Origin: Mytilus edulis
Lineage: Eukaryota
DNA length: 64,000 nt
Direction: 5' to 3'
Assembly: GCF_963676685.1 (NCBI RefSeq)
Contig: NC_092351.1
Coordinates: 90,334,001 to 90,398,000 of the forward strand
Shown here: positions 1,486 to 61,204 of the stretch, piece by piece
Position numbering within the stretch: the first letter of the stretch is position 1
How the letters are laid out: each line of letters begins with the position of its first letter
Notes under the pieces: generated by a model
What the model was told of the DNA's origin: nothing
Databases searched by the model: none
Seen by the model: the letters and a program-made list of their open reading frames with translations, nothing else
Translations under genes and position numbers: made by a program

Positions 1486-2316
1486 GCTTAAACCCCGAAG
1501 TACGCCACTTTCAGAACAAGTCATGTAGTAGTGAAACTCTCAGTGTGATTCCATTTTATTTATGAATTTATGACCACTACAATGACAGCCAGTAAGATAA
1601 GAGGTTATTAGGTAAAGTAATGCAACTTGAGCATTTTGAAAATAGATTAGTGCTAGTGATATTTTTATTGGAACATGGAAGTAGCAATATAAATAATTAG
1701 CTTTAATAAAAATAAACAATTCTATGTTGTACATGTATATATGTATCCCATTCTGAATGATTCAATATAAAAATGATAAAATAAAATACTAGTACATATT
1801 CAGCAGAGGTAATGTTTCAAGTTTCAAGTTTTTTATTTCTCAAAGACCCCAACAGGGGTATGTGAACAATTACAAATACTACATAAGTATTCATAATATA
1901 ACAAATAACAAAGTATCAAAGTAATGCAGTGAACATTATAAACATTCATTAACATATATACATTTGAAAAAGTAATGCATTTAAAGGAAGACAGTAAACT
2001 TCAAATGGACATATTTTAATGGTTGAAACAATATTAGCAATATTAATGAAAACAATATAAGAAGAAGTGTTTTAATGTCATGTATTTGGTATTTTTATTT
2101 GGTAAAAGGCTATCAAGAGCTTATGTGTGTATTGTTATATGTGAACTGAATCAAAATAAAACTTTTGTATCAATCCTATAACTGGAATGGGGGGAATCAG
2201 CTGACGAAGCTATGACCTGTGTATACAAATAGAAATGAATATGCATATCACTGTATATCTTTATATATTGAAAACAAATAATATTCACACACATACAAAT
2301 AAATTATTTATCACAG

Positions 2317-3331
2317 TTAGTTTTCGGTATCTGATTCTTCATTATCACTTTCGTCAGAATCCTGAAGGATATCATCTTCAAGACCGCCATCCTGACCACG
2401 ATCACAGATATCTCTACCTATCTCACCTGATAGAAAGTTACAATAAATATCCCAAAGTGTGAAAACAAACGAGTATGTTTTGGGTTTTAGAAGCCTTTCA
2501 GGTGTTCGGTTGCGTGTCTGTGTAACGCGCCGGAAGACTTTTTCAGATGAAACAGGGCGGTCAACGTGTTCGTTCCAGTCCAGAATTCCGAGACCTGTCC
2601 TGATTTCATATGTTTGTTCACCATAGTGTATCCTTTTGTCTACATATAACAACAGTGTATTATGAAAGCTTTCAATATAATGTGTGTTCAAACAATGGAT
2701 ATACTTCTGTGGATGTTTGTACATATATAAAGATTTTATTGCTTTTTCAGGAGAACTGCTGCCAAATCATTTCGAATCATTGTTCGCGACAAAGTATAAT
2801 AGGGTTCAGTTCTGCACCTTGATGTTGGATGGCATATATCATGGCTGTTCTTGTAATGGTTCACTATATTTTCCAATGAAGCAATGAATTGCTTAACAGA
2901 TCCGTTACAGTTCTTCATTGCCAAATAAGTATGGGTCTTCACCCCAGCAGTTTTGTCAGCCAGTTCTGTGTGCCAAGTTATTCCATAATTTTTCTTTGGT
3001 CCTTAAGTTACCTTTCCGATTGATTTTCTTACTTCCTTTCCAGCATGCCATGTATCAAGGCAGTCAATTACACCAGGTTTGTCTTTTTCAATAAAAGAAC
3101 TTATCGAGGAATTCCTGTCATGGCTGTGACAACGCACTGTCACATTTTTGTACCTAATTCCTCATAGAGTTTTTTAGTTCCGTACAATTCGTGCTTTTGT
3201 GAACTTCGTTCCTGTCTTTTTGTCACATATTGGTAACTTAAGACTTTGTGTTTTTGCTGACCCAGGGCAGTTATATCGGAATTGTAACTGTTCTTTCGGC
3301 ATGCATGCCGAGCATCCGTCATGATATCTAC
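2317..3331 (-). pseudogene. C-terminal (catalytic) half of a Kolobok-like DDE transposase, inactivated
   Basis: Joining ORFs 3140-3322, 2736-2942 and 2317-2724 across two frameshifts (~3147, ~2744) and one stop (~3004) gives DIMTDARH...HSHDRNSS...CLDTWHAGK...NHYKNSHDICH...THYIESFHNTLLLYVDKR...GILDWNEH plus an acidic tail. This is a D-D-E triad with the DxxH motif of the Mutator/P/hAT/Kolobok group. The superfamily assignment is by motif recognition only. Confidence 0.85.
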
Positions 3332-3562
3332 GCAGCGACGTTAAGGGCGTTTCGAAAAAATTCTCATTTTATACACAGGAAAAAGCATATTGAACTCAAA
3401 GTTAGTTTTGTTTGCCTATAGGCCAAAAATGCACGTTAAAAGCGTAAACAGAGGAGAAAATATCTATTCTGAATTGCATTCCAAACTTTTATTTATAGAA
3501 AAATATAAATACATTGGTGTCACGTGACTTCAAACTGAAAGTAATGACATTTCCCAAATAAG

Positions 3563-3866
3563 TCAAAAGGGCAGGTGCAAGATGAAATCGGATCGCCCTG
3601 GTTTTGGGCTTCCTGTAATCGGGATAACTTATTTTACTAGAAAAGTGCTGTGCCTAGTTTGATAGCAGAGGTTTTGTAAATAAAAAACAATAAAACGTGG
3701 AGAATTTTTTCGATTTATTGACTTTTTGGCACTTCGGGTTCTGAAATTTCCTTTAAACGAACGCTATATAACTAGGCACAGCACTTTTTGGAAAATTTGA
3801 AATGTCGCCTTTCTACCAATACCAGAATCAAGTGGGTTGGTATAGTTCTTGCACCTGCCCTTTTGA
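3563..3866. repeat. Bipartite inverted dyad: perfect 20-bp and 19-bp boxes with equal 58-bp spacers
   Basis: TCAAAAGGGCAGGTGCAAGA 3563-3582 is inverted at 3847-3866. AAAAGTGCTGTGCCTAGTT 3641-3659 is inverted at 3770-3788. Confidence 0.9.
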
Positions 3867-6800
3867 ATTAATTTAACATGTCGTAGCATTATCGTCTTGA
3901 AAGGGGAGAGAAAAACGTTTGAATGACGCGGCGGAAGTCGGATCGGCTGACGGAAAAACTAAGTGTTTTTTTGTACTCGCCGTCAAGCGTTTCATAATAA
4001 GCCTACGTCTTGTTTGGGCAGATAAACACATATTCTGTTATTGCTTGCTTAATTTATTGAAGTTTCAAATTCATAATTGTTTCTATTTCAGAGAATATTT
4101 AATTGTGATAGGCAGGACTTTCATAAAATAGAATATTTACATCTTCTTGCATTCCATCTCTTGTGCAAATGGCAGAGGTGCCACCCGTGGGATTTAGATG
4201 GGCTCTGACCCCTTTGTGTGTGAACCCGTTATGTCGCACTTAATTAATAACTTCCATTATTGTTGGGACACGCACCCCCCTTTTTTGTCCAAGTCCGAAA
4301 TCCACATCTCGGGTCCTAGTGATGATCTAATTTTGCAAGTGCAAGTATATTGGGAACTATTATCATTTTAATGAAAAAAGTGGGGTTTTACAAACTTTAT
4401 ACCAAAATTCAGGATTTATTTTTTGCTCTTTGTCATTAATAATATTTAATTAATAAACATAAACTCCTACCTGCATATAAATATTCAGATTTACTAGTTG
4501 AATATCTCCTGTTACTCAAGTGCGCCTGGTATCAATTTGTAAAACATGATAGAAAGGTCTTTTTGAATTTATTCTGTAGGGACAAGGTGATTTTTTTGCA
4601 TCACTGAATATGAATTTTCACCAGTCGCCAGGGCAGTATTTTGTATGGCTTGCTTTTTTTTTTAATGATGTCCCTAGTGAATTTCTACATTTTCTTGGAC
4701 AGAATCTTCCTTTTCATTCCATCTTAAAAAACAATATTTTACTAATTCTAACAGTCTTACAGTTACTTGGTAACTTTTTTTTCTGACCTCCCATTATTAA
4801 TTTAATTCTGGTTGAAAGCACACAAAAGCATTAACAATTCTGTTTTCCTCGAATGAGTATACGTAAGTTTGAATATTTGCACAAACGTATCTTTTTTGGG
4901 GTATTATTAAAGGATTAGAAGCTATGGCGTTGAGTATCTGATACTTAAAAAAAATGTTCCTTGAGCTCTCATGGTTTCCATGTATGCATATACAATGTAT
5001 TACTAAAAGTAAATTTTAATTGCATCTGTGAAAAAATTCACATCCGATTAGTTTCAGATACTTGTCATGCTTGTACATGTACATGTATATATGTACCTAC
5101 ATATGTATGATTCAATCAGCAACCTTGAGTGACATACATTTACATGTATACATTAGCCAAAATTTTTCAACCTGTAGTATATATTTGTACCAAGAAGTTG
5201 GAAACAGTGACCCATTTGTTCTGCCGCTGATTTCATATTAAATTCCTGCCTACCAGCAGGCCAGTGTCAACCAATACAAACGGACAGCCAAGAAAAAACT
5301 AAAAGTGCTTACATGTACATGTACGTCTCATTCAGCACAATCATTTTTTTTTTCATTATCAAGTGCCATTATATTTTAAGGTTCATATTAAACATGATAA
5401 AATCAGAAAACTGATTTCCCCATCACCTGCTGAGATATATTGGAGGCTACTGAATGGTACTTTTTTTCTGTCAGAATAAAAGAAATTCTATGTACCAGTA
5501 CATGTACATAATAATTTTTTTGTTCTTCCCTCTCCAGGATTATATAATGTACATTATATATTGTATATGTATCATTGTTGAAGGCTGTACGATTACCTAA
5601 AATTGTAAATTTCTGTGTCATTTTGGTCTCTTGTGAAGAGTTGTTTCATTGCCATTGGCAATCATACCGCATCTTCTTTTTTAAGTACATGTACATGTAT
5701 ATATAATATACACATTCAGAAATCACTAAATTAATCATAGTTCTTACAAAAGTTTCAGGTGAATGAATCATGACATAGGGGATAGGACAAAATAGTCAGC
5801 ATGGAAATTAAAATGACATATATGTATGAATGCTTTAATGTATAAAACTACTGCCTTCCATGCCTACCAAATATTATTGACAAGGGTACCATCAGTGGTT
5901 AATCTTTACCTGACCTAATCACAATCATGACAAAAAGTAAAATTACTTAATTGTTAATCAAAACTTTTTTGACAATTATACCACATGCTGTTACATGTAT
6001 CTTTAAATCAAAATTCTAGCTGTATTTAAAAAATATGCATGGAACTTCAAAAAAAGAAGAAAGCAATTTCTGTCTGTGTTGGGGTCATGCTGTCTCATTG
6101 CCATACATCACATCTTATGCAAAACATGCTATATATTAGAATCTTTAGTCTACTAATACTGTGAATATTCCATCAAGTTTTCAAGTTTATATAATTATAA
6201 TGTATATCCTTCAAATAGACTCAAAAAAGTGCGAGTAAATTTAGTCCCAAGATAATAATAATTTATATTAAACAATGCCAGGACAATAAACATGATAAAT
6301 GTGAGATTTATTATTGCAGTTACAGAAAATCCTGGATACAAATAATGCATTGTAATACCATCATTTAAATAAATTTATATTTTTTTATGCCAAACATTTA
6401 CAATTATCATGTCATTAGTTTATGTCATTATATAAATAACCAATTTTAGTTTAGACAAGAACAAGAAATGAAAACATTGCATTTTATGATTTCCAAGTAT
6501 AAACAAGCTACATGTATGTACATGAGATACACATCTTCATGTACAATACATATATACATGCATGTACAAAATGGAAATTCCCATAATTATTTTGTTCAAA
6601 ATTAACCATTATGTGACTGTTATACAGATGTTTTGCTCATTATTGAAGCCCAACATCAATATCATACGACTTTCAGATGAACAACAACTGCATGATTACA
6701 ACACTGTTTTATGCTTTTGAACTTTTTGTACACCTACAAATGTAGGCCTGTATTCAGTGTTTATATGAAATGAAATAGAAAAATTATAAATCATGATAAA

Positions 6801-7860
6801 ATATGATTTTCTTGTTCTCTCATGTCTCTGCAGGTGGCCAATATATAAACAACTATTTTTTCCCTGATGGAGAGTTGTTTCATTGGCAATCTGAGTGAAT
6901 CAATTTTTTTTATATGTCATATTCTTACTTTTATCATTACATGTACATGTAACTCAAATTAGTGGTGTGTCAGTGAATTGTATGCCTACATGCATATATG
7001 TATATCGCATGTATATCTGTAGGTAGGAGATATGTTTAAATCAAATAACTTTATCTTATAATTACTCCCTGTCATGCCTGTAATTGCCAAAAAATAACTA
7101 AACACTCATATTAAAGTCTTATAAATAAATATATTTCCTTCTTTCAAATTCATCTGAATGTCATACATGTCATATGTTCATCTGTAGATCTCTAATAAAC
7201 TACTTGGTTAGATATTGCAGATTTTTCAAATATTTCACGAAAGAGACCACAAATTAAATGCATGAAACTGTTGCAACACATTTTTTTTAAATGTAATCCT
7301 TTTTAGAACTCCAATTGTAAGACATATACAAAGTCTCCAAACTGCCTGTATTTAGAATTCATTTCAACTGAGGAAAAAGCTCTCTCCGATGGTAAACATC
7401 AACTTTAATGATCACGATGATGAAAAAGAAGCTAAACTGTTCACTTAAATATTCCTCTGCATCACTGCATCAAAACACTAAACTCCAATTCAACTGGGTC
7501 TTGAAACAGCAAATGCTTCTGCTTAGTACATGATATACATGATATAGAATTGCTGTCTTTTCTTCTTTTCATTGAAATATTTGGTGGCTTTCCAAACAAA
7601 TTTTAATCAGATTTTCGGTATTAAATGGTCATGATGAGTTATAAATAAGTAACTTTCTTCTGCTGTCTCGGTACAGGTGATCATCATTGCTGAAATATGA
7701 AAATGCAAATATAATGTACATGTATATATATTTAAATGAAATGTTTAACATGATATTTATGATTAAAGTATTAAAAAGTAAGTGCAAACATATTTCTTCA
7801 AGAAGTTACTGTTAAAATGCAAACAACTAAATTCCCTGGTCTTTATTTAATAACATGAAT

Positions 7861-7968
7861 AATAAAATTGAGAAAGGAAATGGGGGTGTGTTAAAACAAC
7901 AACAACCCGACAATAGAGCAGACAACAGCCGAAGGCCACCAATGGGTCTTCAATGTAGCGAGAAATTT
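7861..7968 (+). mobile_element. Fragment of an abundant short interspersed repeat (AATAAAATTGAGAA.GGAAATGGGG...ACAACAACCCGAC)
   Basis: Matches the reverse complement of 22110-22213. Another fragment lies near 10810-10850. Confidence 0.7.
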
Positions 7969-8249
7969 CATTAAACATTTGAACAAGGATGTAATTTTTC
8001 ACACACATTTTAATAAGGTGCACTACTTTGATAAAACTTTAAAATAAAATGAGTTATATTTATTGAGATCAGAATGTGAGTTCCATTATTGCAATATTCA
8101 AAATGCAAATTTGCTATATAAAACATTACAATAACTTCTGAATATACATCATACATGTACATTAATATTCTTACAATGTAAGAAAACAGAAATTTATTTG
8201 CACAAATTAAAAAAACACTCACTAGCATATACAGTAGTTGTCTTTTGTT

Positions 8250-8488
8250 CATGTAATTTATATGTGTTTCTTGGTTTTTTTTATATAGATTAGACTGTTG
8301 GACTTGGTTTTACCGTAAGAATGGTTTTACACTAGTAATTTTGGGGCCCTTTATAGCTTTAAGTTCGGTGTGAGCCAAGGTTCCTTGTTGAAGGCCGTAC
8401 GTTGACATATAATGGTTAACTTTTATAAATTGTTATTTGGATGGAGAGTTGTCGCATTGGCACTCACACCACATCTTCCTATATCTAT
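8250..8488 (-). mobile_element. Short interspersed repeat (GAAGATGTGGTGTGAGTGCCAATG.GACAACTCTCC family)
   Basis: Same family as 11112-12760 and 55045-55162. Related copies at ~5575-5680, 20045-20135, 47155-47240 and 53047-53150. Confidence 0.75.
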
Positions 8489-9139
8489 AGACTATTAACC
8501 CCTCCACATTCTGTATGCATGTGCCTGTTATTCAGTGGCTGTCTATGTTGCTGTGTTACATATTATACTGTTAGTTTTCTCCTTTGAATTGCTAAAAAAT
8601 ACATTTGCAATTTAGGGGCCTTTTGTAGCTGAATATGCAGAATGGGCTTTGCTCATTGTTGAAGGCCATACAGTGACCTATAACTATAGTTGTTAATTTT
8701 GGTGTCATTTGGACACTTGAGGAGAGTTGTCTCATTGTACAAAAGTTAGCTGATTGCAGGATAAAACAATTTACCTGTGTATAAAAATAAAACTCTCCAA
8801 TTTCAAACCATCACTTTATATTTCATCAAACCTGGAATGGCATACTAGTGTATCTTGTAATTAACAGGTAAGCTGAAAGAAAAGGTAATCATTTAATTAC
8901 AAACAGATACTTTTTTAAATATTAGGAACATAAACATGACTTTTTGTGTATAATGATTCAAATAACTGTTAAATAAAAAAATAACGTCTGCCACATGCAC
9001 ACAACCCTTATTAGATCGCAGGATTTCCTTCATAGATACATGTATAATGCCCATTTTTTCTTGGATTTCTAGAATTATACAAAATAGAGAAATGACATGA
9101 ACACCTTGTATCACCAGTACAGCAGATATAGTTACTTAC

Positions 9140-9292
9140 CAGGGGTGGATCCAGCCATTTTAAAAAGGGGGGTTCCTAACCCAGGACAAAAGGGGGGGGG
9201 GGGTCCAACTACATGTCCCCATTCAAATGCATTGATTGTTCCAAAAAAAGGGGGGGTTTCCAACCCCCCCCCCCTCCCTGGATCCGCGCCTG
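9140..9292. mobile_element. MITE, TIR CAGG(G/C)G(T/C)GGATCCAG, 5-bp TSD CTTAC
   Basis: TIRs at both ends; CTTAC at 9135-9139 and 9293-9297. A partial second copy lies at ~10850-10910. Confidence 0.85.
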
Positions 9293-11189
9293 CTTACCAA
9301 GCAAGCATGATCGATATTGACCTCACACGGTAACGAAAATCATTGCTTTGTTCACATATAAATTTCAATATGTAACTCAATCTAAAAATAATTGTTGATT
9401 AAAGAAATGATTTGGTCGTAGGTAGAGGATTAGAGATGTCTCATTATTTTCCCAAAACAAAAACGATTACTAAAGACATGTCCAAATATCAACTGTACGA
9501 TGATACACAGTGATAATTGGCAAAAAAAAAATACATGTACATGTATACATGGTATATGTCTGTTTACAGTTACTCGACTGACCCTAATTTGAGCGCTGAC
9601 TCAAAGCTATTTTATTCCTGTCATTAAGTGAAAAATTTATAAAACTCGTGTCAAAAGCGAAGTAAGGGTTGCCAATAAATTTAATCAATTGCCTGATACA
9701 TCCCAATGTTCACAATCGTGAATATGACAGCTGTTCTAAGGAAACTTGCAACTCATGTCATAAAATAAAAACTTCACCCCCATTTTTCCAACCAATAACC
9801 AATAACCAAGGGAAATAATCCAATCATTAAAAATATGGGTAAACTCGGCCCATGGACAAATGAGACCATGGCACAACTCAAAATCATGCACAAAAAAGGA
9901 AAAGAAAAAAAATAGTAAAAGTGAAATACTGACAAAAAATGACTGACCTACCTACCCTATATAACAACAACAAACAACAACAATTTTTATTTGTCAATCA
10001 AGACGCCCCGAGGAGCAGTACAATTACAGTTTAAATTAAAGTGTACAAATAATTGTGTTGATTTTTTATATATATATTGATGATATACATGTAAGATTGT
10101 AACCTTAAACAGACAGACTGACATGGCCATATATACAAGTGTGGTCATTTTAGCTCTTCTTTATACATGTCTTAAATCAATTTTCATGATTAACTAGAAA
10201 TACTGAAATCACTGCCCGTAATAGTCAGCCCCTCCAAAATATAAAATCTAAAACAAACACCTGAATCTCTGTGAGCTACTGCTCACTAATAATATTCCTA
10301 TACCCTTAAAGTATAAGGTTAACAGAAAGTTGTTGAGTAATGAATCTGAAAAAGCATGACACAGTATAACTGACTCTGACATGCATGTATAAACTCTGAA
10401 GCCAAATTTCAGAAATCCTTGTAACATTCCTGCAAACAGTGCTATGAAAAATATTCATGGGACGGACTGACCTAAGGATGTACAGACAGTCATACAGTAG
10501 TAAAACAGTATGCCCCAACTTTTTTAAATACTAAAAGTGGTGCCGGGGTACATGTACAAATATAAAAAAAATTGCCAACAGTGGCACAGTTCATGGATTA
10601 TTTTTTGAATAATATTAAAATCCCATAAAGAGAATGAGTAAAATCTAAAAATATTCATTGTATAAAAAATCATAAGGGATCATTTCAGCAAATTTTCATG
10701 AAAATTTGTTCAAACGGTTTAAAGTCATTATTTGATAATTTCGACCCTTTATTACGAATAATGTCCCTATACATGTAGTACTCAAAAACAAGATATAAAT
10801 TATATGTAATAGAAATGTGAGAATGGAAATGGAAAATGTCACCAATGGGCTGGGGCAGATCCAATTATTTTAAAAAGGGGGGTTCCTAAACCTGGACAAA
10901 AAAAGGGGGGTATCTGTGTTCCTGATGCCTGGTTTGTATAACTGTTACAAATGAACACTTTCGTCTCAGCGGCTTATGGTAGACTTGCTTTCAGAGCAAT
11001 AAGAATATGAGACGCCCTTAATCTACAGGTTCCTACAAAGAAATGTCTTTCTCTGTTTAGAATTTAAACAACTTTCTTGCAAGCAGGCTCCCCAAGAAAA
11101 TTTTATAACTTGATATAGGAAGATGTGGTGTGAGTGCCAATGAGACAACTCTCCATCCAAATAACAATTTAAAAAGTAAACCATTATAA

Positions 11190-11590
11190 TGGTGAAGTTG
11201 AAATCATCCCTTCGTAAATTTTACGGACGCCATCACGAGTTGGTTGACCGTTATGGAATAACCGTTTCACAAATGATATCGGATATGTTCCTTACGTCGT
11301 AACTACAATCCCCTTCTCTTTCATGAATTTGACCTACCGAATTAGACTATTTACTGGATTTGTAATCACGACGGATGCCGCATGTGGAGCAGGATCTGCT
11401 TACCCTTCCGGAGCACCTGAGATCACCCCTAGTTTTTGGTGGGGTTCGTGTTGTTTATTCTTTAGTTTTCTATGTTGTGTCATGTGTACTATTGTTTTTT
11501 CTGTTTGTCTTTTTCATTTTTAGCCATGGCGTTGTCAGTTTGTTTTAGATTTACGAGTTTGACTGTCCCTTTGGTATCTTTCGTCCCTCT
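11190..11590 (+). mobile_element. 3' fragment of a Penelope-like retroelement (RT C-terminus plus 3' region)
   Basis: Reads VKLKSSLRKFYGRHHELVDRYGITVSQMISDMF, followed by the CCTTCCGGAGCACCTGAGATCACCCC tail also seen at 32640-32950 and 36225-36480. Confidence 0.75.
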
Positions 11591-11625
11591 TTAAAAGTAC
11601 AGCCTTCAACACAGAGCCTTGGCTC

Positions 11626-12496
11626 CAGGGTTTCCGCTGGCGGTCGCCATTTTCGCAATTTGCGAAAAAATAATAATTGTGGCGATAAAAATTCGTCATT
11701 TGCGAAAGAATTTGGCGAAAGAAATATATAAACCGATTTATTTTCCTCCATCTAAGGCATCTTGTTTATTTACTTTTTGTCGAGTTTGTCTGACTTTACC
11801 CGATCAGACAATACTCGGAATTCACCTTGACCTCATTAAGATTTAGACAGAAAATCAATAATCAGCTGATTGCATTTTATAGCTATCGACAACAAAGAAC
11901 TAATTAATAAAGATGTTGATTGAATTGTTTCACAAAATGATATGGTCAAATGGCTTCCGCTGTAAATGTCACATACAGAATATATTTACATCTTTGCGAC
12001 GCACGTGTTTGAAGCAAACTTTTGACATCTCTCCCTTTAAAGATAGTTTTCAAAAGAAAGCTGTTGTTGTGACGAAAATTGTTCTAAAGCAAGAAAAATC
12101 TCCGATTTAAAACTTTAATTCTTTTATCCTTTGACTTTAATAAAGTCGTTTGAGTGACACATGCACGTGTTTCAAGCATAGTTGTACGTCTCAACTTTTT
12201 CATTTACGATGGTGAAGAAAAGAAAACTGTCGTTATGAAAAAATCTATCCAAAAGGCTGGGAACAACCCCTCGAATGAGAGTAACCCTTCAATGTAATGA
12301 CTACACATGAAACGAGGGATCAATTTCATGTGATAAAAGCTTTTGTTTTGTTGTAAAAATTACTTCTTAGTACAAAAGGGCACAACAGGAAAAATATATT
12401 TATGTTACTTGGCGAAAAAAATAATAAAGTGGCGAAAAATATATTGTTTTGGCGAAAGAGGTGGCGAAAAAAATAATTGACCCAGGGGAAACCCTG
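11626..12496. mobile_element. Non-autonomous hAT transposon (871 bp)
   Basis: TIR CAGGGTTTCC / GGAAACCCTG, perfect 8-bp TSD CTTGGCTC (11618-11625, 12497-12504), and repeated subterminal TGGCGAAA motifs. Confidence 0.92.
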
Positions 12497-13117
12497 CTTG
12501 GCTCACACCGAACAACAAGCTATAAAGGGCCCCAAAATTTCTAGTGTAAAACCAACGGTCTAATCTATATAAACAAAACGAGAAACACGTATATATTACA
12601 TAAACAAACGACAACTACTGTACATCAGATTCCTGACTTAGGACAGGTGCAAACATTTGCAGCGGGATTAAACGTTTTAATGGATCCAAACCTTTTCCCT
12701 TTTTCTGAAACAATAGCATCCCTTCTGTTTAACGGGATACATACATGTATAGCTTAAAAACACGAAATCCCTGGCTTAAAAATACAAAATCTGGTGGTCC
12801 GGAAATTCGAAAAAAGAATTCCCGGATCCTGAAAGGGTCAATCCCCAAATCCCAATCTAAAAACACCTGGTCCCAGAGTCCTGATAAAGGTCCTATCCAC
12901 CCTCATAATTATTTGGACTAGGGGAGGGGTACAACATATGTTAAGCTCCAGATTACGTGTTTCAGGTTCCTTTTGAGCAAGTATGTATGCACCCCTGTGC
13001 TCCAAATTAATAGCTCCACGATATCATTATTATTTGGATTAGAGCAATATGTACCCATCCAGGAAATTAATGACAGGTACTGAGGTAGGCAGGACACCTG
13101 CGAAACGAAAATTAGTA

Positions 13118-13714
13118 TACTGAATTGTCATTGATATCGGCATTTGTCACATTGATAAATGGGACAGTCTTCAACTTTTCTTCAGATATAGCATCGCTAA
13201 TTGATAAATCCCTAAAGTATTTAACGGATTCACCATATATTCCCGCAGTTTTAGTCCGAAATCGCTTACTTGGAATGCCAATTCCCGAAAAATCTGAAAA
13301 TCTCTCATATTGGATGTTGAGAATTCCACTACACATGTAGGAATGGAACATCTTGTAATTAATATAATAATCCCCATGTAGATTTGGCGAAGAACTCCAA
13401 AACAAATACATCTGGTATAAGTCCTGTGACAATAAGGTCATCCTTGCCACATGTCCACATTTCTCATAATTCACTATTTTCAGGTTTCTGAATGTTTCAT
13501 GGAATTTTAATAGTTCCTGGATCTGGGAATATGTGCACACAAAAGTTTCATTTGGATCAATATCTAGTGTTGACTCACTCTTTAAGGATGTAATACTATC
13601 ATCAGAAAGAATTTCATTTTTGTTCACTGATTTATCTGATGTTTCTGTAGACATTGGTGTCTTCTGGTTCAAATCCAATAACTCAATTAATCTGTTGAAT
13701 AATTCTGTATTAGT
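13118..13714 (-). pseudogene. N-terminal half of the same Kolobok-like transposase
   Basis: ORF 13112-13678 extends upstream as KTNTELFNRLIELLDLNQK. It contains ETFVCTYSQIQEL...FWSSSPNL..YYINYKMFHSYMCSG..QYERF, the segment that precedes the first catalytic D, and joins 3331 in frame. Confidence 0.8.
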
Positions 13715-13715
13715 T

Positions 13716-15849
13716 TTTATACGACCGCAAAAATTGAAATTTTTTTGGTCGTATATTGGTATGATGTTAGCGTCGTCGTCGTCGTCGTCCGAATACTTTT
13801 AGTTTTCGCACTCTAACTTTAGTAAAAACGAATAGAAATCTATGAAATTTTAACACAAGGTTATGACCACAAAAGGAAGGTTGGGATTGATTTTAGGAGT
13901 TTTGGTTCCAACAGTTTAGGAATTAGGGGCCAAAAGAGGGCCCAAATAAGCATTATTCTTGGTTTTCGCACAATAACTTTAGTATAAGTAAATAGAAATC
14001 AATGAAATGTAAACACAAGGTTTATGACCACAAAAGGAAGGTTGGGATTGATTTTGGGAGTTGAGGTCCCAACAGTTTAGGAATTAGGGGCCAAAAAGGG
14101 GCCCAAATAAGCATTATTCTTGGTTTTCGCACCATAACTTTAGTATTAGTAAATAGAAATATATGAAATTTAAACACAAGGTTTATGACCATAAAAGGAA
14201 GGTTGGGTTTGATTTTGGGAGTTTTGGTCCCAAAAGTTTAGGAATAAGGGGCCCAAAGGGTTCAAAATTAAACTAAGTTTGATTTTAACAAAAATTGAAT
14301 TCCTGGGGTTCTTTGATATGCTGAATCTAAACATGTACTTAGATTTTGTATCATTGGCCCAGTTTTCAAGTTGGTCCAAATTGGGGTCCAAAATTAAACT
14401 TTGTTTGATTTCAACAAAAAATGTATTCTTGGGGTTTTTTGATATGCTGAATCTAAACATGTACTTATATTTTTTTATTATGGGCCCAGTTTTCAAGTTG
14501 GTCCAAATCGTGGTCCAAAATTAAACTTTGTTTGATATCAACAAAACTTGAATCCTTGAGGTTCTTTGATATACTGAATCTAAACCTGTATTAAGATTTT
14601 TCATTATAGGCCCAGTTTTCAAGTTGGTCCAAATTTGGGTCAAAAATTAAACTTTGTTTGATTTCAATAGAAATTGTATATATGCCGTTCGTCATCACGT
14701 TATTTCACTATGTTAAACCTTGGTAATCTAAAAGTCGTAAAGACCCTTTCATATTAAAATTTAAGGAAGTAAGCAAGATAATATTATTTGCAATCGGCAG
14801 ATATGACACACAAATATGTTTAGAAATGAACATTTGGTTACGAAAACCCTCACAAAGTATTTAACGTCAGAGTATCCCCCTTTTTTTCTCTTCGTATGCA
14901 TGGTGATTCTTTAAAGATTCATGAACAACTCAAGTATGAAAATGTGAAAAAAACAATTATTTTACATCTTTAATGTGTTTATCTCTAGTCAGAAACTATC
15001 AAAATGTCGATTATTTCGTTCCCGGCATTTTTACACCGAAAAGGGGAATAATCGATCTGAATCAATTCAGTGTTTAAATGTCGCCGAGTAAGGACTTCAA
15101 TATCATTCATCTATAAAGATCGCATTGGCGCACCCCGTTAACATTTATTGATCTCTTTAAAACTTGGCATATTTATTCTTGGAAAGCTCATGAATACGAA
15201 GATTGCTGTTTCTTGTTTTTAAAATGAATATAACATTTCTAAAATTGGCAAAATAGTTGACTTTTGGTGTGGCCACGGTTGGATTGTATGTCATTTCTGT
15301 TATTTTTTATTATGAAAGGGCACATTTAAAGAATGAAACAGCTGTTACGGGAAACATAACATATTTGTCAACCAAATACAACTTTATTTTTATTCATTTG
15401 TCTAGTTCTATGGGGTGCCCCAGGCTCTTGAAGTTGGACGTTCACACGCCATCTTTGAATGCTGCCCGTTACCATGGCAACCAGATGGAGGGTTCTGAGA
15501 CACCAGAAATTAAAACTTTGGATGATATTAGGGATGATAAAAATAAGTTCTGGGTATGAAAGTTTCTAGACAAAAATTCTAATTAATTTCAAATTTCATT
15601 GATTTTACATGAATAAATAGCCGATTTACTCTCGAACAGCATTAACCTACCTGCGTTAAAATTTAAAGTTTTTAAGTTTAAGTTCTTAGACCACATTCAT
15701 TATGTGTCAGAAAACTGTGTTGTGTCAACTTTTTAATCACAATCCAAATTCAAGCTGTATCAAGCTTGAATGTTGTGTCCATATTTGCCCCAATGTTCAG
15801 GGTTCGAACTCTGCGGTCGTATAAAGCTGCGCCCTGCGGAGCATCTGGT
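13716..15849 (+). mobile_element. Helentron-associated non-autonomous element (HINE/DINE-like) inserted in a T-run of the transposase
   Basis: 5' TTTATACGACCGCA has an inverted copy TGCGGTCGTATAAA near the 3' end, followed by a GC hairpin and CTGGT. A (GTC)n microsatellite at ~13772 and internal tandem core repeats at 13800-14680. No TSD. Confidence 0.88.
14684..15660. mobile_element. Unrelated ~1-kb segment nested in the HINE (DNA-transposon-like remnant)
   Basis: Interrupts the HINE core repeats and carries the GTTACCATGGCAACC box also found in the 20789-27379 element. Ends are not defined. Confidence 0.4.
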
Positions 15850-15851
15850 TT

Positions 15852-16005
15852 AATTATACAAAAAAAATCTATGTTCTTCCCAGCCAGACGGGAAATGAGA
15901 GCATATCAAAGTTATCTTTCTTTACCTGCTGATCGAGAGCTCTACGATAAGATAAAAGTCTATTTAAAGGATAAATTCGATCTTTTTCTGTCGAGTTTAA
16001 ACAAA
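15852..16005. pseudogene. 5' part of the transposase exon; 15852-15984 is apparently inverted (now reads on +)
   Basis: Re-inverting 15852-15984 gives splice acceptor TACTTTCTTTTTTAG (ends 16006) followed by LFKLDRKIIQKKSMFFPARREMRAYQSYLSLPADRELYDKIKVYLKDKFDL-KTNTELFNRL. Confidence 0.6.
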
Positions 16006-16393
16006 CTAAAAAAGAAAGTAAAACAAGCAATACTATAATTCATCAAAATATTGAAACCTAGAAGAACATTATGTTTTATTTAATGATTAACCACTGCAAC
16101 AGTCGATTGATCAATCTTACCGTTAAATTGTTGGATCATTTAACAGGACTAAATAGACTATAGTCAGGAATTCACTGGTTTGTTGCTGTGTTACATATTT
16201 GTTTTTCGTTGTATATAAATCTGGTTGTTAGTTTTCTACTTTGAATTGTTTTACTTTTTGTCTTTTCGGGGCCTTTTACTAGCTGAATATGCAGTATGGG
16301 TTTTATGCATTGTTGGTCTATAATTGCTAGTTTCTGTCATATGTTCTCTTGTGGAGAGTTGTCTATTTGGAAATCATAACACGTCTTTTTATG

Positions 16394-16489
16394 TTTAAGT
16401 ACATTATATATTAAGATGTATAAACTAGAAGAGGAGTTTAAAATCACTCATGTTCTAGTTTATACATCTTAATATATAATGTACTTAAA
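16394..16489. repeat. Perfect 37-bp inverted repeat with a 22-nt loop
   Basis: TTTAAGTACATTATATATTAAGATGTATAAACTAGAA at 16394-16430 and its reverse complement at 16453-16489. Confidence 0.95.
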
Positions 16490-17715: not shown

Positions 17716-18744
17716 ATGTTTAACAATCAATAAACTTATTGTTGTATCACATTTCACAAAAAAATGTCTAATCTTATTTCTCATCTAATTATAGATAATT
17801 ATTGAAAACTGATACTAAATACAACAATCTATGTCGAGTGTTTGTGTCACCTTTTGTAACAGGACGATTTAGTTTTGCCTCATTATGGTTTTGATTCGAT
17901 GCCGGTAGAATCATTTGCGTATCAACGTAACTTTATTGCCAAATAACAAGTTTAAATTGTTTTGAGTGAAACTGAAACCTACAATTTGTACTACAAACGC
18001 GATTTACTGACTTCTCAAAGGATCTTAAAGGTTTGAAGGACAATTACCATATTTTAACATTTTTTTTTTAATTTTGGTTTTTATTTGGCATCTGTAAAAT
18101 AAGTTATTATTTTATATTAAATGTTTATATTAATTCTTGTCTTAATTTTATTCATAATCGTATGAAATGCCTGGAAAACTTGACAAAAGCTGTTAAATAC
18201 TCATACCTTCTTATAGTGTATACGAGTAGAGTTTTCGTACACAAGATATTTGTTTAATTTTGTTCATTTATATAACCAACAATAATTGACGATTTTCCAT
18301 TTGGTATCTGACGAACAGTTGTCTCAATTCGATCAGACAACATCTACTTTTATTTTTTTTATATATATTTAAGGCTTCTTAAAAGACTTTATTAGTATCC
18401 AGATATTTTATCCAGAAACATTACAATCGACAAACATACTGTACTCTCTAAAAAGTAAAAACCAATAAAATCAAAGGTAAAGAGAATAACATGCAAATCA
18501 GATATAGTTCACACATAGTAATTAGGGTAAGGGTTATAGTTAACAATTGTGTAGAATGAAATACACTTTAGATTAAAATAAAGTGTTCATCAATATTACA
18601 AACATTAATAAGTACTACATCAGAAAAGAAATCAAACTTGCAGGGAACATGGAAAACGTCTCTTCCTCTCTCCCTCCATCCCTATGTCCGTCTGTTAATC
18701 ATTACGCCTGTAGCTCCGTCAAATGTACAGTTCTGGCCAAAATG

Positions 18745-20040
18745 TATATCATATGCGTATATCAGCAATGTCTCGGACGAGTTCTAAAACCAGTGCCGAT
18801 CAATATTTTATATCACATGTGTATATCCATAATGTCTCGAACAAATTCTAAAACCAGTGCCGATCAATATTTTATATTACATGTGTATATCAGCAATGTT
18901 TCGGACGAGTTCTTAAACCAGTGCTGATCAATATTTTATATCAAATGTGTATATCCGCAATGTCTCGGACGAGTTCTAAAACCAGTGCCGATCAATATTT
19001 TATATCACATGTGTATATCCATAATGTCTCGAACAAGTTCTAAAACCAGTGCCGATCAATATTTCATATCACATGTGTATATCAGCAATGTCTCGAACGA
19101 GTTCTTAAACCAGTGCTGATCAATATTTTATATCACATGTGTATATCAGCAATTTCTCGGACGAGTTTTAAAACCAGTGCCGATCAATATTTTATATCAC
19201 ATGTGTATATCAGCAATGTCTCGGTGGAGTTCTTAAACCAGTGCTGATCAATATTTTATATCACATGTGTATATCAGCAATGTCTCGGACGAGTTTTAAA
19301 ACCAGTGCCAACCAATATTTTATATTACATGTGTATATCAGCAATGTTTCGGACGAGTTTTAAAACCAATGCCAATCAATATTTTATATCACATGTGTGT
19401 ATCTGCAATGTCTCGGACGAGTTTTAAAACCAGTGCTGATCAATATGTTATATCCCATGTGTGTATCCTCAATGTTTCGAACGAGTTTTAAAACCAGTGC
19501 CGATCAATATTTTATATCACATGTGTATATCCATAATGTCTCGAACAAGTTCTAAAACCAGTGCCGATCAATATTTCATATCACATGTGTATATCAGCAA
19601 TGTCTCGGACGAGTTCTTAAACCAGTGCTGATCAATATTTTATATCACATGTGTATATTAGCAATGTCTCGGACGAGTTTTAAAACCAGTGCCGATCAAT
19701 ATTTTATATCACATGTGTATATCAGCAATGTCTCGGTGGAGTTCTTAAATCAGTGCTGATCAATATTTTATATCACATGTGTATACCCGCAATGTTTCGG
19801 ACGAGTTTTAAAACCAGTGCCAATCAATATTTTATATCACATGTGTATATCCACAATGTATCGGACGAGTTCTAAAACCAGTTCCGATCAATACTTTATA
19901 TCAGATGTGTATATCAGCAATGTGTCAGACGAGTTCTTAAACCAGTACCGATCAATATTTTATATCACATGTGTATATCTGCAATGTCTTGTGCGAGTTT
20001 TAAAACCAGTGCCGATCAATATTTTATATCACATTTGTTA
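18745..20040. repeat. 64-bp minisatellite (ATATCACATGTGTATATCAGCAATGTCTCGGACGAGTT..AAACCAGTGCCGATCAATATTTT), ~20 copies
   Basis: CAGTG anchor at 18791, 18855 and onward, period 64. Confidence 0.96.
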
Positions 20041-21979
20041 TATAAAAAAGAAGATGTGTACGGTATGATTGCCAATGAGACAACTATCCACAAAAGACCA
20101 AAATAACACAGACATTAACAACTATAGGTCACGGTATGCATCGAAAACATTGAATATATGGAAAGTTGTATTATTAGCGCATTCAAGTATACATTAACTG
20201 CCAATTGTTTATAAAACCTATTAAAGGTTTATAGCAAAAGTGTCTCATGCAAGTTCGGAATTCATTGCCAGATTTTTTATAGTAACTTATATTATACGTT
20301 TTTATCAGCGATGTCACGGACGAATTTGGAAATCAGTGCCGATTGATTATTTGTAAAAGGATAATGGACCTTAGAAATATCAATAATATGGAAATATGCA
20401 TTGAAAGCGCTGTCCCATGCACATGTCTGTTAGATTTTTAGTTATTGACCTTGAATAGATAAACTATCCGGTACGTCTGTTCTTTTGTTATCAATTTATT
20501 TGAGGAATATTTCCCACCATTCTAGCCTTGCGATATACTTCTATTTGTTTGAAAAACATTTCCCAACACTCTAGAATTGCGACAAACTTGTATTTATTTG
20601 GGGAACATTTCCCAGTATTCGAGCCTTGCAATATACATCTATGTGTTTGACCACGACATCATATTTCATAATAATTGATACTTTTATTGCTTACCACATT
20701 ACCTATTAACAGACTGATGTGAGTACTACTATTGAATGTTTACACTGTAAATAAATCATTATACAGAATGCCTAAGACGACAAATTAAGAGCAATTCTCT
20801 GTAACCACCAACCATTTTACATAGAGGTGCCGGCACGCATAGTCACCGATTTTCATGAAACTTAGCCAAAACATGTGATCATGTAAAAAAGTAAGAAAAA
20901 TGCCCACCCAAATGTTGCTAGGTCATGGTTGCCATGGTAACCAAGTGAATTAGATTTCCCGCAAATTTTGAGGAATTTAGCATCGAAAAAACAACTACTT
21001 TGCAGTCATTCGTAATCAAAACTAGGTTTTATTTAATGTTATTTGTAAATATTTTTTAGAAACATGAAACTTAACAAACAAAGTAGCAATGTCATATATA
21101 AAAAATATTTTGGCTGAATATTGTCACAACCGCAGAAGCAGAGGTCATTTTTCAATATAGTTCAGAAGACAAATTTTACACATTTTGTATGAACAAAATA
21201 GACATTTTTGCATCCACCTCCATTTAACCTGTGGTTATGAATGAAAAGTATCAACGTTTCTAATCAAAATAATATAACAAAATGTTTGGGAAATTAGGTT
21301 CTAGGATGGTTGCTATGGAAACAAAAATGTGTCATTTTTGCCTTTTTACCTCTAAAATGTAGCCATTTTAATAAAATAGTCCACAAAAAGTAATTATTAT
21401 TGAATGACTATGATGTGCAAACTATTGGCAATTAAATGACCATAAATTTGTCCAAAGGTCAAAGGTTATTGATGACCTTGACCTTTGACCCTGTGTATAT
21501 TAATTGAATTTTGAAAGGAAATATAATAGAAAGAGGCTACTATACATGGAGAAAATTGTCAGGATGTTTTAAGCCACCTTTTATCAGCATATGAAAAATA
21601 AAGAGTTATGGTCATGTCAAAAGTGCTTAGCAACCACCCTTATTTGATAAAAAATGTACCTAGCAACCATGCACAGCAACAGTTTATTTTAGATTTCATT
21701 TGGACAAAAATTAGAAAAAAATAATATTTAAAACACATGTCTAATCCGGAAAAGTAGATAATATAGCAAATTTAATTTCATGAGACTGATTACACATATA
21801 TACAAAAATTTAAAAGATGTCGTCTGATAAGACAACTCTCCAGAAGACAACCAAATGTTATTTAAAGACAAATTATTTATATCTACAAGAAGAAGAGAAA
21901 AGGAATATAACTGCTAAGAGATCAACCAGTTTATTTTGGTTGGAGTTAATTGGCCTTTCAAGCAAAGAAGTTAGGCACC

Positions 21980-23550: not shown

Positions 23551-24855
23551 TTTTTATCTCACCTGGCCCAAAAGGGCCAAGTGAGCTTTTCTCATCACTT
23601 GGCGTCCGTCGTCCGTCGTCGTTAACTTTTACAAAAATCTTCTTCTCTGAAACTTCTGGGCCAAATTGAACCAAACTTAGCCACAATCATCATTGGAGTA
23701 TCTAGTTTAAAAAATGTGTCCGGTGACCCGGGCAACCAACCAAGATGGCCGCCATGGCTAAAAATGGAACATAGGGGTAAAATACAGTTTTTGGCTTATA
23801 ACTCAAAAACCGAAGCTTTTATAGCAAATCTGACAGGAGAAAAAATTGTTTATCAGGTCAAGATCTATCTGCCCTGGCGTTGTCAGATAAATCGGACAAC
23901 CCGTTTTTAGGTTGCTGCCCCTGAATTGATAATTTTAAGGAAATTTTGCTGTTTTTGGTTATTATCTTGAATATTATTATAGATAGAGATAAACTGTAAA
24001 CAGCAATAATGTTCAGCAAAGTAAGATTTACAAATAAGTCAACATGACCAAAATGGTCAGTTCACCCCTTTAGGAGTTATTGCCCTTTATAGTCAATTTT
24101 TAACCATTTTTCGTAAATCTGTAATCTTTTAGAAAAATCTTCTCCTCTAAAACTACTGGGCCAAGTTTAACCAAACTTGGGCCAAGTTTAACCAAACTTG
24201 GCCACAATCATCATTGGGGTATCAAGTTTAAAAACTGTGTCTGGTGAGTGATGACTCGGCCAACCAACCAAGATGGCCGCCATGGCTAAAAATAGAACAT
24301 AGGGGGTAAAATGCAGTTTTTGGCTTATAACTCAAAAACCAAATCATTTAGAGCAAATCTGACAGGATGTGAAATTGTTAATCAGGTCAAGATCTATCTG
24401 CCCTGGAATTTTCAGATGAATCTGATAATCGATGGTTATGTTGTTGCCCCTGAATTGGTAATTTTAAGGAAAATTTGGCGTTTTTTTTTATTATCTTGAA
24501 TATTATTATATATTAAACTGGAAACAACAATAATGTACAGCAAGGTAAGACCTAAAAATAAGTCAACATGACTAAAATGGTCAATTGACCCCCTAAGGAG
24601 TTCTTTCCCTTTATAGTCAATTTTTAACAATTTTCATAAAATTTTTAAATTTTTACTAACAATTTCCACTGAAACTTCTGGGTCAAGTTCATTATAGATA
24701 GAGCCAATTGTAAGCAGCAAGAATGTTTAGTAAAGTAAGATCTACAAACACATCACCATCACCAAAACACAAGTTTGTCATGAATCCATCTGTGACCTTT
24801 GTTTAATATTCACATAGACCACGGTGAGCGACACAGGCTCTTTAGAGCCTCTAGT
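23551..24855 (+). mobile_element. Complete HINE (Helentron-associated element)
   Basis: 5' TTTTTATCTCACCTGGCCC-AAAA-GGGCCAAGTGAG hairpin, (GTCC/GTC)n microsatellite, two ~500-bp internal repeats, 3' GGTGAGC sub-TIR, hairpin AGGCTCT-TT-AGAGCCT then CTAGT. Inserted in a T-run. Confidence 0.9.
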
Positions 24856-38239: not shown

Positions 38240-38672
38240 TTTTTATAGACGAAACGCGCATCTGGCGTATATACAAAGTTTAGTTCTTGTATCTATGATG
38301 AATTTATTTACAACCACTGGAAGGATGCCACTGCTGGTGGAGATATAATTCCTCGAGGGTATCACCAGTCCAGTAGTCAGCACTTTTTGTGCTGACATGA
38401 ATTATCATTGATATGGTTATATTTTTAAATTAACTGTTTACAAAATTTAGAACTCTTGAAATACTAAAGCTTTTCTACCCCAGGCATAGATTAACTTAGC
38501 TAGATTTGGCAAAACTTTTAGGAATTTTGGTCCTCAATGCTCTTCAACTTCGTACTTTATTTGGCCTTTTTAACTCTTTTGGATTCCAGCGTCACTGGTT
38601 AGTCTTTTAATATTCGAAACGCGCGTCTGTCGTATATACAAAGTTTAGTCCTGGTATCTATGATGAGTTTAT
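38240..38672 (+). mobile_element. Second retrozyme locus (365-bp unit), opposite orientation, hammerheads truncated or degenerate
   Basis: AGACGAAACGCGCATCTGGCGTA at 38247 and GCGTCACTGGTTAGTCTT...CGAAACGCGCGTCTGTCGTA at 38589-38634. The body is homologous to the reverse complement of 35640-35900. Confidence 0.8.
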
Positions 38673-38674
38673 TC

Positions 38675-43540: not shown

Positions 43541-43899
43541 AATTTCAGTGAGTTCGTGTTTGTTTGATCGATCCATCTGTTGATAGATAAGTGTAATTTT
43601 TCTGGTTTGTCTGCTCTGGACATTATATAATCAGTTTAATGTGTTCTGATTTTCCAATTTGTCCGGTTTGTCTACAAAAAAGGAAAATGTAGATGCAATT
43701 CCTTTGAGTCATGAATGATCTTCCTTTTTGAAGAACCACACTGATTCCTACAACAAATACACAGAATATGATATAATCAAAATGTGTTACTTTTCTTTTA
43801 TTGATAACCTGTTGGTTGTCATTTGAACAGATAATCTATATTCCAACTGGCTGAATTAATTTTGTACCCCTCTGCACTTTGAGACATGTTGTAGATGAT

Positions 43900-57900: not shown

Positions 57901-58615
57901 AGTATCTGTCAAGTCTTGTGTTGCCAAACAGTATCTGTCAAGTCTTGTGTTGCCAAACAGTATCTGTCAAGTCTTGTGTTGCCGAAACAGTATCTGTCAA
58001 GTCTTGTGTTGCCAAACAGTATCTGTCAAGTCTTGTGTTGCCGAAACAGTATCTGTCAAATCTTGTGTTGCCGAAACAGTATCTGTCAAGTCTTGTGTTG
58101 CCAAACAGTATCTGTCAAGATTTGTGCTGCCAACAATGTATCTGTCAAGTCTTGTGTTGCCCACACAGTATCTGTCAAGTCTAGTATTGCCAACACGGTA
58201 TCTGTCAAGTCTTGTGTTGTAAAAACAGTATCTGTCAAGTCTTGTGTTGAGTATTATGTTGCCAGAACAGTATCTCTGGAGTCTTATGTTGCAAGAAAAA
58301 TGTCTGTCAAGTCTTTTGTTGTCAGTACAATATATTTGGAGTCTTGTGTTGCCAGAACAGTGTTGTGATGCCAGTAAACTGTCAGTCAAGTTTTGTGTTG
58401 CCAGAACATTATGCATGTGGAGTCTGTTATCTTTCTAAGGAAGTATTTGTCAAGACTTGTGTTGCTAGAACAGTATCTTTGGAGTCTTAAATTCCAATAG
58501 CAATATCTGTCAAGTACTGTCTTATGTTGCCAAACAGTATACCTAGAGCAATATCTGTCAAGTCTTATGTTGCCAAACAGTATACCTAGAGCAATATCTG
58601 TCAAGTCTTATGCTA
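54975..58615. repeat. 30-bp satellite GTCTTGTGTTGCCAGAACAATGTCTGTCAA, ~120 units, drifting to GTTGCC(G)AAACAGTATCTGTCAA
   Basis: Seen directly. Homogeneous core at 55540-56010, with a short-repeat insertion at 55045-55162. It explains all the Cys-rich ORFs here. Confidence 0.97.
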
Positions 58616-61192: not shown

Positions 61193-61204
61193 GCGTCTGT
61201 TGGT

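Follow-up and report, generated by a model that had tools for sequence, protein, structure and literature searches.

The window (the whole stretch of 64,000 nucleotides of Mytilus edulis DNA that was analysed) contains two pieces of a transposase gene, both on the minus strand. The piece at 13118..13719 is an open frame corresponding to approximately codons 73-269 of the protein of an intact copy on C7 (~607 aa), with 67% amino acid identity to that protein and 94.5% DNA identity to the sister copy on C11; it carries the motifs KTNTELF (13717) and WSSSP (13399). The C-terminal half of the gene (DARH, HDRN, DTWH, zinc finger and ESFHN) is found at 2317..3330, with TDARH at 3319, SHDRN at 3125, LDTWH at 3059 and YIESFHN at 2679, and in three blocks shows 79-84% amino acid identity to the C7 transposase. 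Comparison with the intact C7 copy confirmed the two frameshifts (1 bp each, near 3147 and 2747) and the single in-frame stop (near 3005) that an earlier note on this DNA had described in this half. The same note had placed 13118-13714 in one gene with 3331-2317, and uninterrupted copies were looked for and found: the C11 sister is continuous over the 13118/3331 join (97.3% identity over 150 bp, 94.5% over 603 bp), as is the C7 copy. The segments 13719-13118 and 3330-2317 belong to a single transposase gene, which has no interruption in C11 (94.5-97%) or in C7. A scan of the window with a transposase profile of 48 sequences gave only four domains with positive scores, spanning profile positions 72-554. 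C11, the nearest sister, differs by 3.8%, and the changed codons (7 synonymous and 15 of 22 non-synonymous) are compatible with neutral decay; at this distance and with this share of non-synonymous changes, to call the element recently intact was an overstatement.

The 5' side of the element is gone in the window (first 72 codons, second gene, and 5' end with the 5' TIR). Matches to this missing part were found on C11 and C7 only (genome search, best candidates scored), the far terminus of the family was not found in the window or in the 10 kb on either side, and a displaced 5' part was not found on C8, a second search being swamped by a repeat (best 40 of 590 scored). Genome searches scored the best candidates only, so that "single-copy" and "absent" are lower-bound statements throughout. 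The M. edulis gene model P0001 (94%) has two derived sites in common with the window, and a model of the second gene is the next accession, on a contig of equal length; together these suggest a close copy or allele that retains the 5' side.

The 3' (downstream) end of the element was placed at the TTAA target site at 1488..1491, where similarity to C7 starts. The 3' non-coding arm (1492..2316, minus strand) has the terminus ACCCCGAAG, a short imperfect TIR, and 72% identity to C7 over 1488-1581 and 2291-2381; the ends of the C7 copy read AGCCCGAAG and ACCCCGAAA. TTAA is found at the surviving end in the window, at both ends of the C7 copy and on both flanks of a short derivative on C4 (93% identical over 139 bp from 1482), and the L087/L088 similarity ends at TTAA on both sides. 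The other hits of the TIR scan were not considered as independent evidence for this target, since the scan itself required TTAA. Inside the 3' arm lies a 224-bp fragment (1814..2037) that comes from a high-copy repeat whose end is a GTTTCAA tandem (199 candidates, best 40 scored, top identity 98-99%), other copies of which extend past 2037. A 503-bp repeat lying close to three Kolobok copies was considered for a link with them and set aside, as it is present at 17 of 225 loci.

Among the 48 sequences, the catalytic D274 and D340 are invariant and E489 is conserved in at least 90%, and all three are present in the window. The C/DxxH motif is represented by DTWH (3059-3045), which lies after the second D and before the E, with W363 and H364 invariant, and is followed by a zinc finger (2861-2814) in which H427, C435 and C441 are invariant and H432 is conserved in at least 90%. 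A zinc finger between C/DxxH and E occurs throughout the Kolobok superfamily except in Kolobok1, and is absent from MuDR, P and hAT (PMC9587614). Kolobok termini are given as 5'-RR...YY-3' in the same paper, a form which the window element does not follow: the terminus is AC in the window, AG and AC in C7, AC in C9, L087, L088 and C4, and AG in L084 and L085. The relative L087 (36.7% identity to the C7 protein over 447 aa, E 3e-92) matches by eye the Kolobok_1_MyEd row of the published alignment over the ~190 residues shown, and because L087 also lacks RR, the element was filed under the Kolobok-1_MyEd clade and not under the strict Kolobok definition. The Data S5 alignment of PMC9587614 holds three rows with DARH/HDRN (Kolobok-1_MyEd, Kolobok-16_CGi and Kolobok-1_OwFu), the sole DARH rows in the supplement, and judging from these motifs and from the similarity to L087 the element would belong to the clade published under these names.

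The two pieces of the gene are separated by one ~10-kb TIR element (3331..13115) with the terminus CGCAGCGACGTTAAGG... (CGCAG ends), which has a TA target duplication at 3329-3330 and 13118-13119 and no ORF of at least 100 aa. It is colinear with sisters on C13, C5 and C11 at 1.1-1.3% mismatch (full length 10,074 and 10,056 bp) and lacks the right TIR with the rest of its last 676 bp; target duplications were of 2 bp in all five paired copies (TT, TA, TT, AA, TA). After 13115 the sisters read on as AAACGAATTTC, and in comparison with C11 the target bases are wholly kept in the window. The truncated end is followed by a 2-nt filler TA (13116..13117) in the junction AGTA|TACT, which is palindromic about the flank boundary; the filler also equals a simple repeat of the target duplication, and a hairpin is favoured by just 2 extra bases (1 in 16 by chance) at a single junction. 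Within the insert, an 871-bp insertion that is presumably hAT-like (11626..12496, ends CAGGGTTTCC and GGAAACCCTG, 8-bp duplication CTTGGCTC) is missing in all four sisters covering the site and was skipped in 4 of 4 runs, and came in after the arrival of the 10-kb element. Among the alignments listed between the insert and diverged copies, similarity was found in all frames with stops. The insert could possibly hold a gene of small exons, and no autonomous transposase partner for CGCAG elements was recognised in the loci fetched.

Upstream of the transposase, the window contains HINE (non-autonomous Helentron) sequence in a 5' and a 3' part, both on the plus strand. The 5' part (13718..14680) has a subTIR at 13718, an IR at 13747, (GTC)n at 13772 and arrays of 161 and 126 bp; the 3' part (15656..15850; 2088 candidates, best 40 scored, 95-98% identity) has a subTIR at 15812 and a hairpin at 15826-15842. 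All the modules named in the excerpted description of PMC7492417 (5' subTIR, IR, microsatellite, central arrays, 3' subTIR and hairpin) were found within 13718-15850. Between the two parts lies the right-hand 975 bp (14681..15655) of a second CGCAG-ended element, full copies of which are at least 4.3 kb: 19 of 19 other loci examined share its end base and extend leftward past 14681, and left ends were located in four of the five fetched copies. The HINE breaks the transposase gene at 13719 and is fused to the second CGCAG element at 14680, a junction with patchy microhomology between the HINE unit and that element and likely a deletion point. A metagenome scan for the flank beyond 15851 gave 0 matches. 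The segment 15853-16035 was tried as a known protein (sole match itself; one weak Pfam match, E 0.2; Atlas matches under 0.9 with low recognition) and as a host exon, which it may be: AG and GT stand there at plausible places, with no splice joint among the rows listed.

The earlier note had restored a whole gene from four pieces, one of them inverted, by placing 16005-15985 and 15852-15984 before the two pieces described above. The frame does open up to the last piece when the pieces are joined, and "DRK" and "KFD" loosely resemble FDRKFD of C7, but 15852..16005 is apparently single-copy DNA and no part of the transposase. The C11 copy, 94.5% identical up to 13719, is unlike these two pieces beyond that point, its true N-terminus reading ...KKFESAKKLLHL-KTNTELF. 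DNA scores of the two pieces were 17 against the C11 N-terminus (equalled by 397 of 500 shuffles) and 21 against that of C7 (123 of 500), and their protein scores against the sister N-termini were equalled by 1108 and 1958 of 2000 shuffles, whereas the positive control, C11 against C7, scored 171 (DNA) and 250 (protein). Since the true N-terminus of the sisters is matched no better than by shuffles, no inversion took place. In addition, the 48-sequence profile gave no domain at 15852-16005, no second genome match was found for 15852-16150 (DNA and protein searches, best candidates scored), one of the four runs gave a contig that spans 15833-16423 unbroken on the plus strand, and 15852-15984 lies inside a longer plus-strand open frame (15682-16038) that extends beyond the claimed breakpoint. 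The four-piece model is left with next to no credence, and the gene is in two pieces; a free choice of breakpoints and strand lets unrelated AT-rich DNA yield an open frame. A domesticated transposase gene in which the two halves would be spliced exons and the 10-kb element an intron is extremely unlikely: the public model P0001 strings these parts together and a little RNA covers 2564-3095, but P0001 omits the catalytic strand with DARH as well as the two frameshift sites, like an automatic model, the RNA has a depth of 1.4 with the mate direction expected for antisense RNA, and the lack of a start region, the frameshifts and stop and the codon changes against C11 point the same way.

The class of the element and the origin of the gap were weighed in the same manner. 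The Kolobok affinity proposed at first reading is supported by the DDE triad, DxxH, the zinc finger that follows it, the TTAA end and the 37% relative matching the Kolobok_1_MyEd row. A MuDR/Mutator element instead of Kolobok is very unlikely, even though the Pfam family "Mutator-like" PF20700 is found in many homologs (it is the only match of the C9 relative, just below its cut-off; the C7 protein has no match at E<=1) and the best fold match of the C7 protein is ISCth4 (E 7e-6), which we take to be IS256/Mutator-like, followed by the P element (3e-4) and Hermes (3e-3) transposases. Against it stand the 4-bp TTAA target and short TIRs, the zinc finger after DxxH, which MuDR lacks, and the Kolobok name carried by the relatives in the alignment (PMC9587614). 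As for the gap, a favoured landing pad filled by many successive insertions, as the earlier note had it, is quite improbable. The gap is packed with repeats, the 871-bp insertion is private to the window copy and the Kolobok copy has been touched by three different elements, but ~8.5 kb of the 9.8 kb aligns at 98.7-98.9% with sisters on other chromosomes, which already carry nearly all of the inner repeats: the gap is one element with its repeats on board at arrival. What stands of the nested insertions is two directly in the coding sequence and, in the 3' arm, one small fragment of a repeat, and no more; no special attraction seems to be needed, since nested insertions are frequent in other fetched loci too. 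A single cargo-laden element, and not a series of events, can account for a long gap rich in repeats.

A second ORF, about which the earlier note had asked, is present in sisters. It is located upstream of the transposase and head-to-head with it at 13 of the 16 loci tested, with 785 representatives at E<=0.001. For the second protein, P2X7 497-593 is rank 1 of 48,161 in VIA-align (Z 3.4, rmsd 3.7, 70 aligned), a place it shares with unrelated rows, and comparison with the P2X7 ballast using Foldseek gave E 4.5. Of 150 homologs, 12 had Pfam P2RX7_C at E<=1 (best 0.005), while the second-gene profile gave 0 matches against PDB sequences and no usable match in the Atlas. The second gene is probably a shortened KolX, and if so KolX would not be confined to the Kol0 lineage. 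Two by-products are perhaps undescribed, with somewhat less than an even chance for both together: a shortened KolX (P2X7 ballast relative, kin of the piggyBac KolX-like proteins) in this Kolobok clade, and at least two active mussel families of 4-10 kb CGCAG elements that have 2-bp duplications but lack a long ORF, mobilised by a putative hairpin-forming transposase whose one-ended cut would be recorded at 13115-13119.

The locus is very probably one dead Kolobok-clade copy with its transposase in two pieces, split by a single ~10-kb TIR element, and its 5' part lost, likely by a later deletion. A two-gene element of 3.5-4.5 kb would have inserted at TTAA by cut-and-paste and then undergone neutral decay. 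The 10-kb CGCAG element, moved in trans, would have landed at a TA that precedes the first catalytic Asp by ten bases, and its right end would later have been cut with loss of the 676 bp, the whole flank and palindromic junction being as after a one-ended cut with hairpin opening. The HINE would have inserted at the T-run in codon 72-73, with no fixed order relative to the landing of the 10-kb element. A deletion may then have fused the HINE array to the interior of a second CGCAG element that lay in another HINE, farther out, and so have taken away the 5' part of the Kolobok element. Neither an empty allele nor one from before the deletion was directly observed; one such deletion has a rather better than even chance, and two deletions around a single HINE form a tentative alternative that falls short of it. 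The whole is ordinary nested transposon decay, nested and truncated transposons being routine in the 1.37-Gb mussel genome, and its value to curators is modest (the intact C7 copy with both Kolobok genes, a likely shortened KolX that we have not seen described with this clade, and large CGCAG elements).

Several known systems can be compared with these elements. The HINE resembles Cg_HINE of oyster in its subTIR, IR, microsatellite, two tandem arrays, 3' subTIR and hairpin, as these are given in the excerpt of PMC7492417, a likeness by module structure alone, and differs in that a deletion junction and part of another element interrupt it. The CGCAG elements share C...G termini, TIRs and a 2-bp duplication with the CMCT group (EnSpm/CACTA, Mirage, Chapaev), for which the excerpted text of PMC12730594 gives duplications of 2-5 bp, termini CA...TG in most cases and, for the CMCT/EnSpm transposase, C(2)C and H(3-4)H motifs; the 10-kb insert has CG...CG and not CA...TG, and since no transposase was found in the loci fetched, the CGCAG elements are at most candidates for the group. 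With Kolobok-1_MyEd, Kolobok-16_CGi and Kolobok-1_OwFu the window family has in common the TDARH, HDRN, DxWH and ESF motifs and TTAA ends, but it is separate at ~37% identity, and the window copy is broken. KolobokP belongs to the same superfamily and is common in mussels (PMC9587614); the window family differs by a second gene that is upstream and divergent, and by having neither long terminal direct repeats (450 or 660 bp, flanking the element in 0 of 7 self-compared loci) nor a His-Me finger nuclease downstream (no ORF of at least 120 aa between transposase and 3' TIR in C7 or C9). The Kol0 lineage (Kolobok-1_XT) with KolX likewise combines a transposase with a small Cys-containing second protein, and the top VIA-align match, the P2X7 ballast, has the KolX fold; in the window clade, the second gene is head-to-head with the transposase, and its protein has, in place of the seven ballast cysteines, a CxxCxxxPC core that resembles the shortened KolX-like proteins listed for piggyBac.

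The window (G000:C8:90334001-90398000, in a genome of 1.37 Gb) is AT-rich and repeat-filled; its closest named proteins belong to Mytilus edulis (94%), which marks it as mussel DNA. Six-frame translation placed the motifs of the transposase on the minus strand at 13717-13118 and 3331-2317, and a genome search with each piece as query returned adjoining matches for both at two further places. In the intact sister on contig C7, both halves lie within a single open frame of 617 codons (about 607 aa counted from the first Met). A broken sister on C11, 94.5% and 97.3% identical to the window, is continuous over the junction. Because both copies are uninterrupted across the two halves, these pieces withstood both parts of the refutation proposed in the earlier note, namely that intact copies would differ in their N-terminal half or that the halves would belong to unrelated families. 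The two frameshifts and one stop that it reported in the last piece were recovered by comparison with C7, each frameshift being of 1 bp. Its rebuilding from four pieces holds for 13717-13118 and 3331-2317, and fails for 15852-15984 and 16005-15985.

The C11 sister follows the window to 13719, beyond which its N-terminus is 70% identical to that of C7 and unlike 15852-16005, the segment previously read, part of it as inverted, as the start of the frame. This segment scored no better than shuffles, its DNA score being equalled by 397 and 123 of 500 shuffles (against the C11 and C7 N-termini) and its protein score by 1108 and 1958 of 2000, while the control (sister versus sister N-terminus) scored about 10 times higher. 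A transposase profile (48 homologs, picked from 69 matches by length and coverage) detected four domains with positive score in the window, none of them before profile position 72, and in the genome search the genuine 5' part of the transposase matched on C11 and C7 only. The first 72 transposase codons are therefore lost from the window copy, and the locus holds no inversion. Region 15852-16150 gave no second match in the genome search; within it and on the plus strand, 15886-16017 is an apparently single-copy open frame, preceded by a pyrimidine run and AG and followed by GT, which could be an exon or a product of chance.

The two ends of the 9.8-kb gap between the transposase pieces (3331..13115) find their matches at shared places on C13, C5 and C11, where copies are colinear with the gap over about 8.5 kb (1.1-1.3% mismatch), inner repeats included. 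Complete copies measure 10,074 and 10,056 bp, with CGCAGCG...CGCTGCG inverted terminal repeats and a 2-bp duplication in 5/5 paired copies. Read from these copies, the gap is a single insertion and not, as had been proposed, the result of repeated nested insertions into a landing pad; a piece of 871 bp, which has its own 8-bp duplication, is a later addition to it. The final 676 bp of the window's insert are missing, yet the target bases are all kept, and the junction at the truncated end reads AGTA|TACT. This one junction could have arisen by a cut at the right end of the insert, hairpin opening and repair, a mechanism known from hAT and CACTA footprints. ORFs of at least 100 aa are absent from the insert, and the loci extracted yielded no partner transposase. 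Its duplication falls within the range of the CMCT group, but its CG ends do not fit the CA..TG termini given in PMC12730594, and the element is therefore left unclassified. The interval from about 24 to 54 Mb on C11 holds many of the diverged ends of CGCAG elements, as well as four fragments of Kolobok.

At the 5' break, a HINE (non-autonomous Helentron) starts at 13718 and carries every module listed for oyster HINEs in PMC7492417. Its array breaks off at 14680, where it joins the terminal 975 bp of a second CGCAG family (window 14681-15655; L193-L197, 4.3-7 kb; TIR ends CGCAGGCAGGTTAATGC), other copies of which extend further to the left and reach a length of at least 4.3 kb. The duplication is 2 bp in three of four paired copies and 3 bp in the other, and no transposase was seen in the window copy or in L193-L197. 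This element lies within a 3' part of a HINE, which ends at about 15850 and is followed by non-Kolobok DNA. A single deletion, from the first HINE into the second CGCAG element, would account for every loss; two deletions around one HINE are a possible alternative, because the bases directly after the HINE are TTAA, the Kolobok target. There is a hint of an allele retaining the 5' side, since a public M. edulis model has two derived sites in common with the window and is adjoined by a second-gene model. Reads of one RNA run (X24) on the HINE (13736-14799 and 15332-15863) are strongly in one direction (3772 vs 98), which suggests that some genomic copies of this repeat family are transcribed in a stranded manner.

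Of 744 bases aligned between the Kolobok pieces and C11, 28 differ; among the codon changes in the middle piece, 7 are synonymous and 15 non-synonymous. Divergence between the insert and its sisters is about 1.2%. The Kolobok copy was probably in decay before or during the arrival of the insert, and the locus is a case of ordinary nested decay.

Long minisatellite arrays occupy 1-780, 18617-20132, 38579-43641, 54981-58279 and 60180-61727 (units of 36, 64, 44, 30, 58 and 31 bp). A repeat of 503-bp units at 23551-24857 also lies close to two other Kolobok fragments; being common (17/225 loci), its nearness to Kolobok copies was attributed to chance. Some 6-8 kb beyond the window's end, a 705-codon Q/S/P-rich open frame (L155:5799-7913, minus strand) without Pfam match is probably a host exon, somewhat reminiscent of mastermind-like coactivators, and the window may be close to that gene or within it.

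The surviving end of the element reads TTAA|ACCCCGAAG at 1488-1500. The intact C7 copy (L026:3739-7293, G000:C7) spans 3555 bp between two TTAA and has two genes: one encodes the transposase of 607 aa, and the other, with two exons, is identical to a named M. edulis model. The genome matches included no further copy nearly identical to it. A short non-autonomous derivative of about 360 bp (L153:4052-4410, G000:C4) keeps both ends and the TTAA duplication. As modelled by AlphaFold (pLDDT 84), the C7 protein matches the ISCth4, P element and Hermes transposases. Kojima and Bao 2022 (PMC9587614) define Koloboks by DDE, C/DxxH, a zinc finger that precedes the last E, duplication of TTAA and RR..YY termini. 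The first four features were all found; the RR end was not, the window terminus being AC. RR ends are likewise absent from locus L087, which is 36.7% identical to the C7 protein and by eye matches the Kolobok_1_MyEd row of PMC9587614 over the roughly 190 residues compared, so that on sequence grounds the element can be filed in the Kolobok-1_MyEd/16_CGi/1_OwFu clade. The Kolobok affinity suggested earlier is thereby right at clade level.

Identity with KolobokP was rejected. Multimers recalling KolobokP occur at L154 (G000:C1:32082500-32092400), a tandem array with a period of 3025 bp whose units are 99.8-99.9% identical; every unit holds a Kolobok transposase frame of 495 codons, and none gave a second-gene match.

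In 13 of the 16 loci tested, the transposase is preceded upstream by a second ORF in divergent orientation (a fragment in one, none in two), which is absent from the window; the gene has 785 representatives at E<=0.001. No description of this head-to-head layout was found in the literature searched, Repbase reports lying outside that search, and the name Kolobok_16_CGi_2p implies that a second protein is already annotated in Repbase. Sequence profiles of the second protein gave no match against PDB. Its commonest Pfam match is P2RX7_C (12/150, best E 0.005), and the P2X7 ballast, which has the KolX fold, ranked first among 48,161 chains, with a Z of only 3.4 and a query model of pLDDT 59. By eye, its pattern CxxCxxxPC...N..RK.Y.RFW...R..MP.CV...R...PNP...Y.GH resembles the shortened KolX-like proteins given for piggyBac in Data S6 of PMC9587614, and the second gene is likely akin to KolX, the second protein of Kol0-lineage Koloboks.
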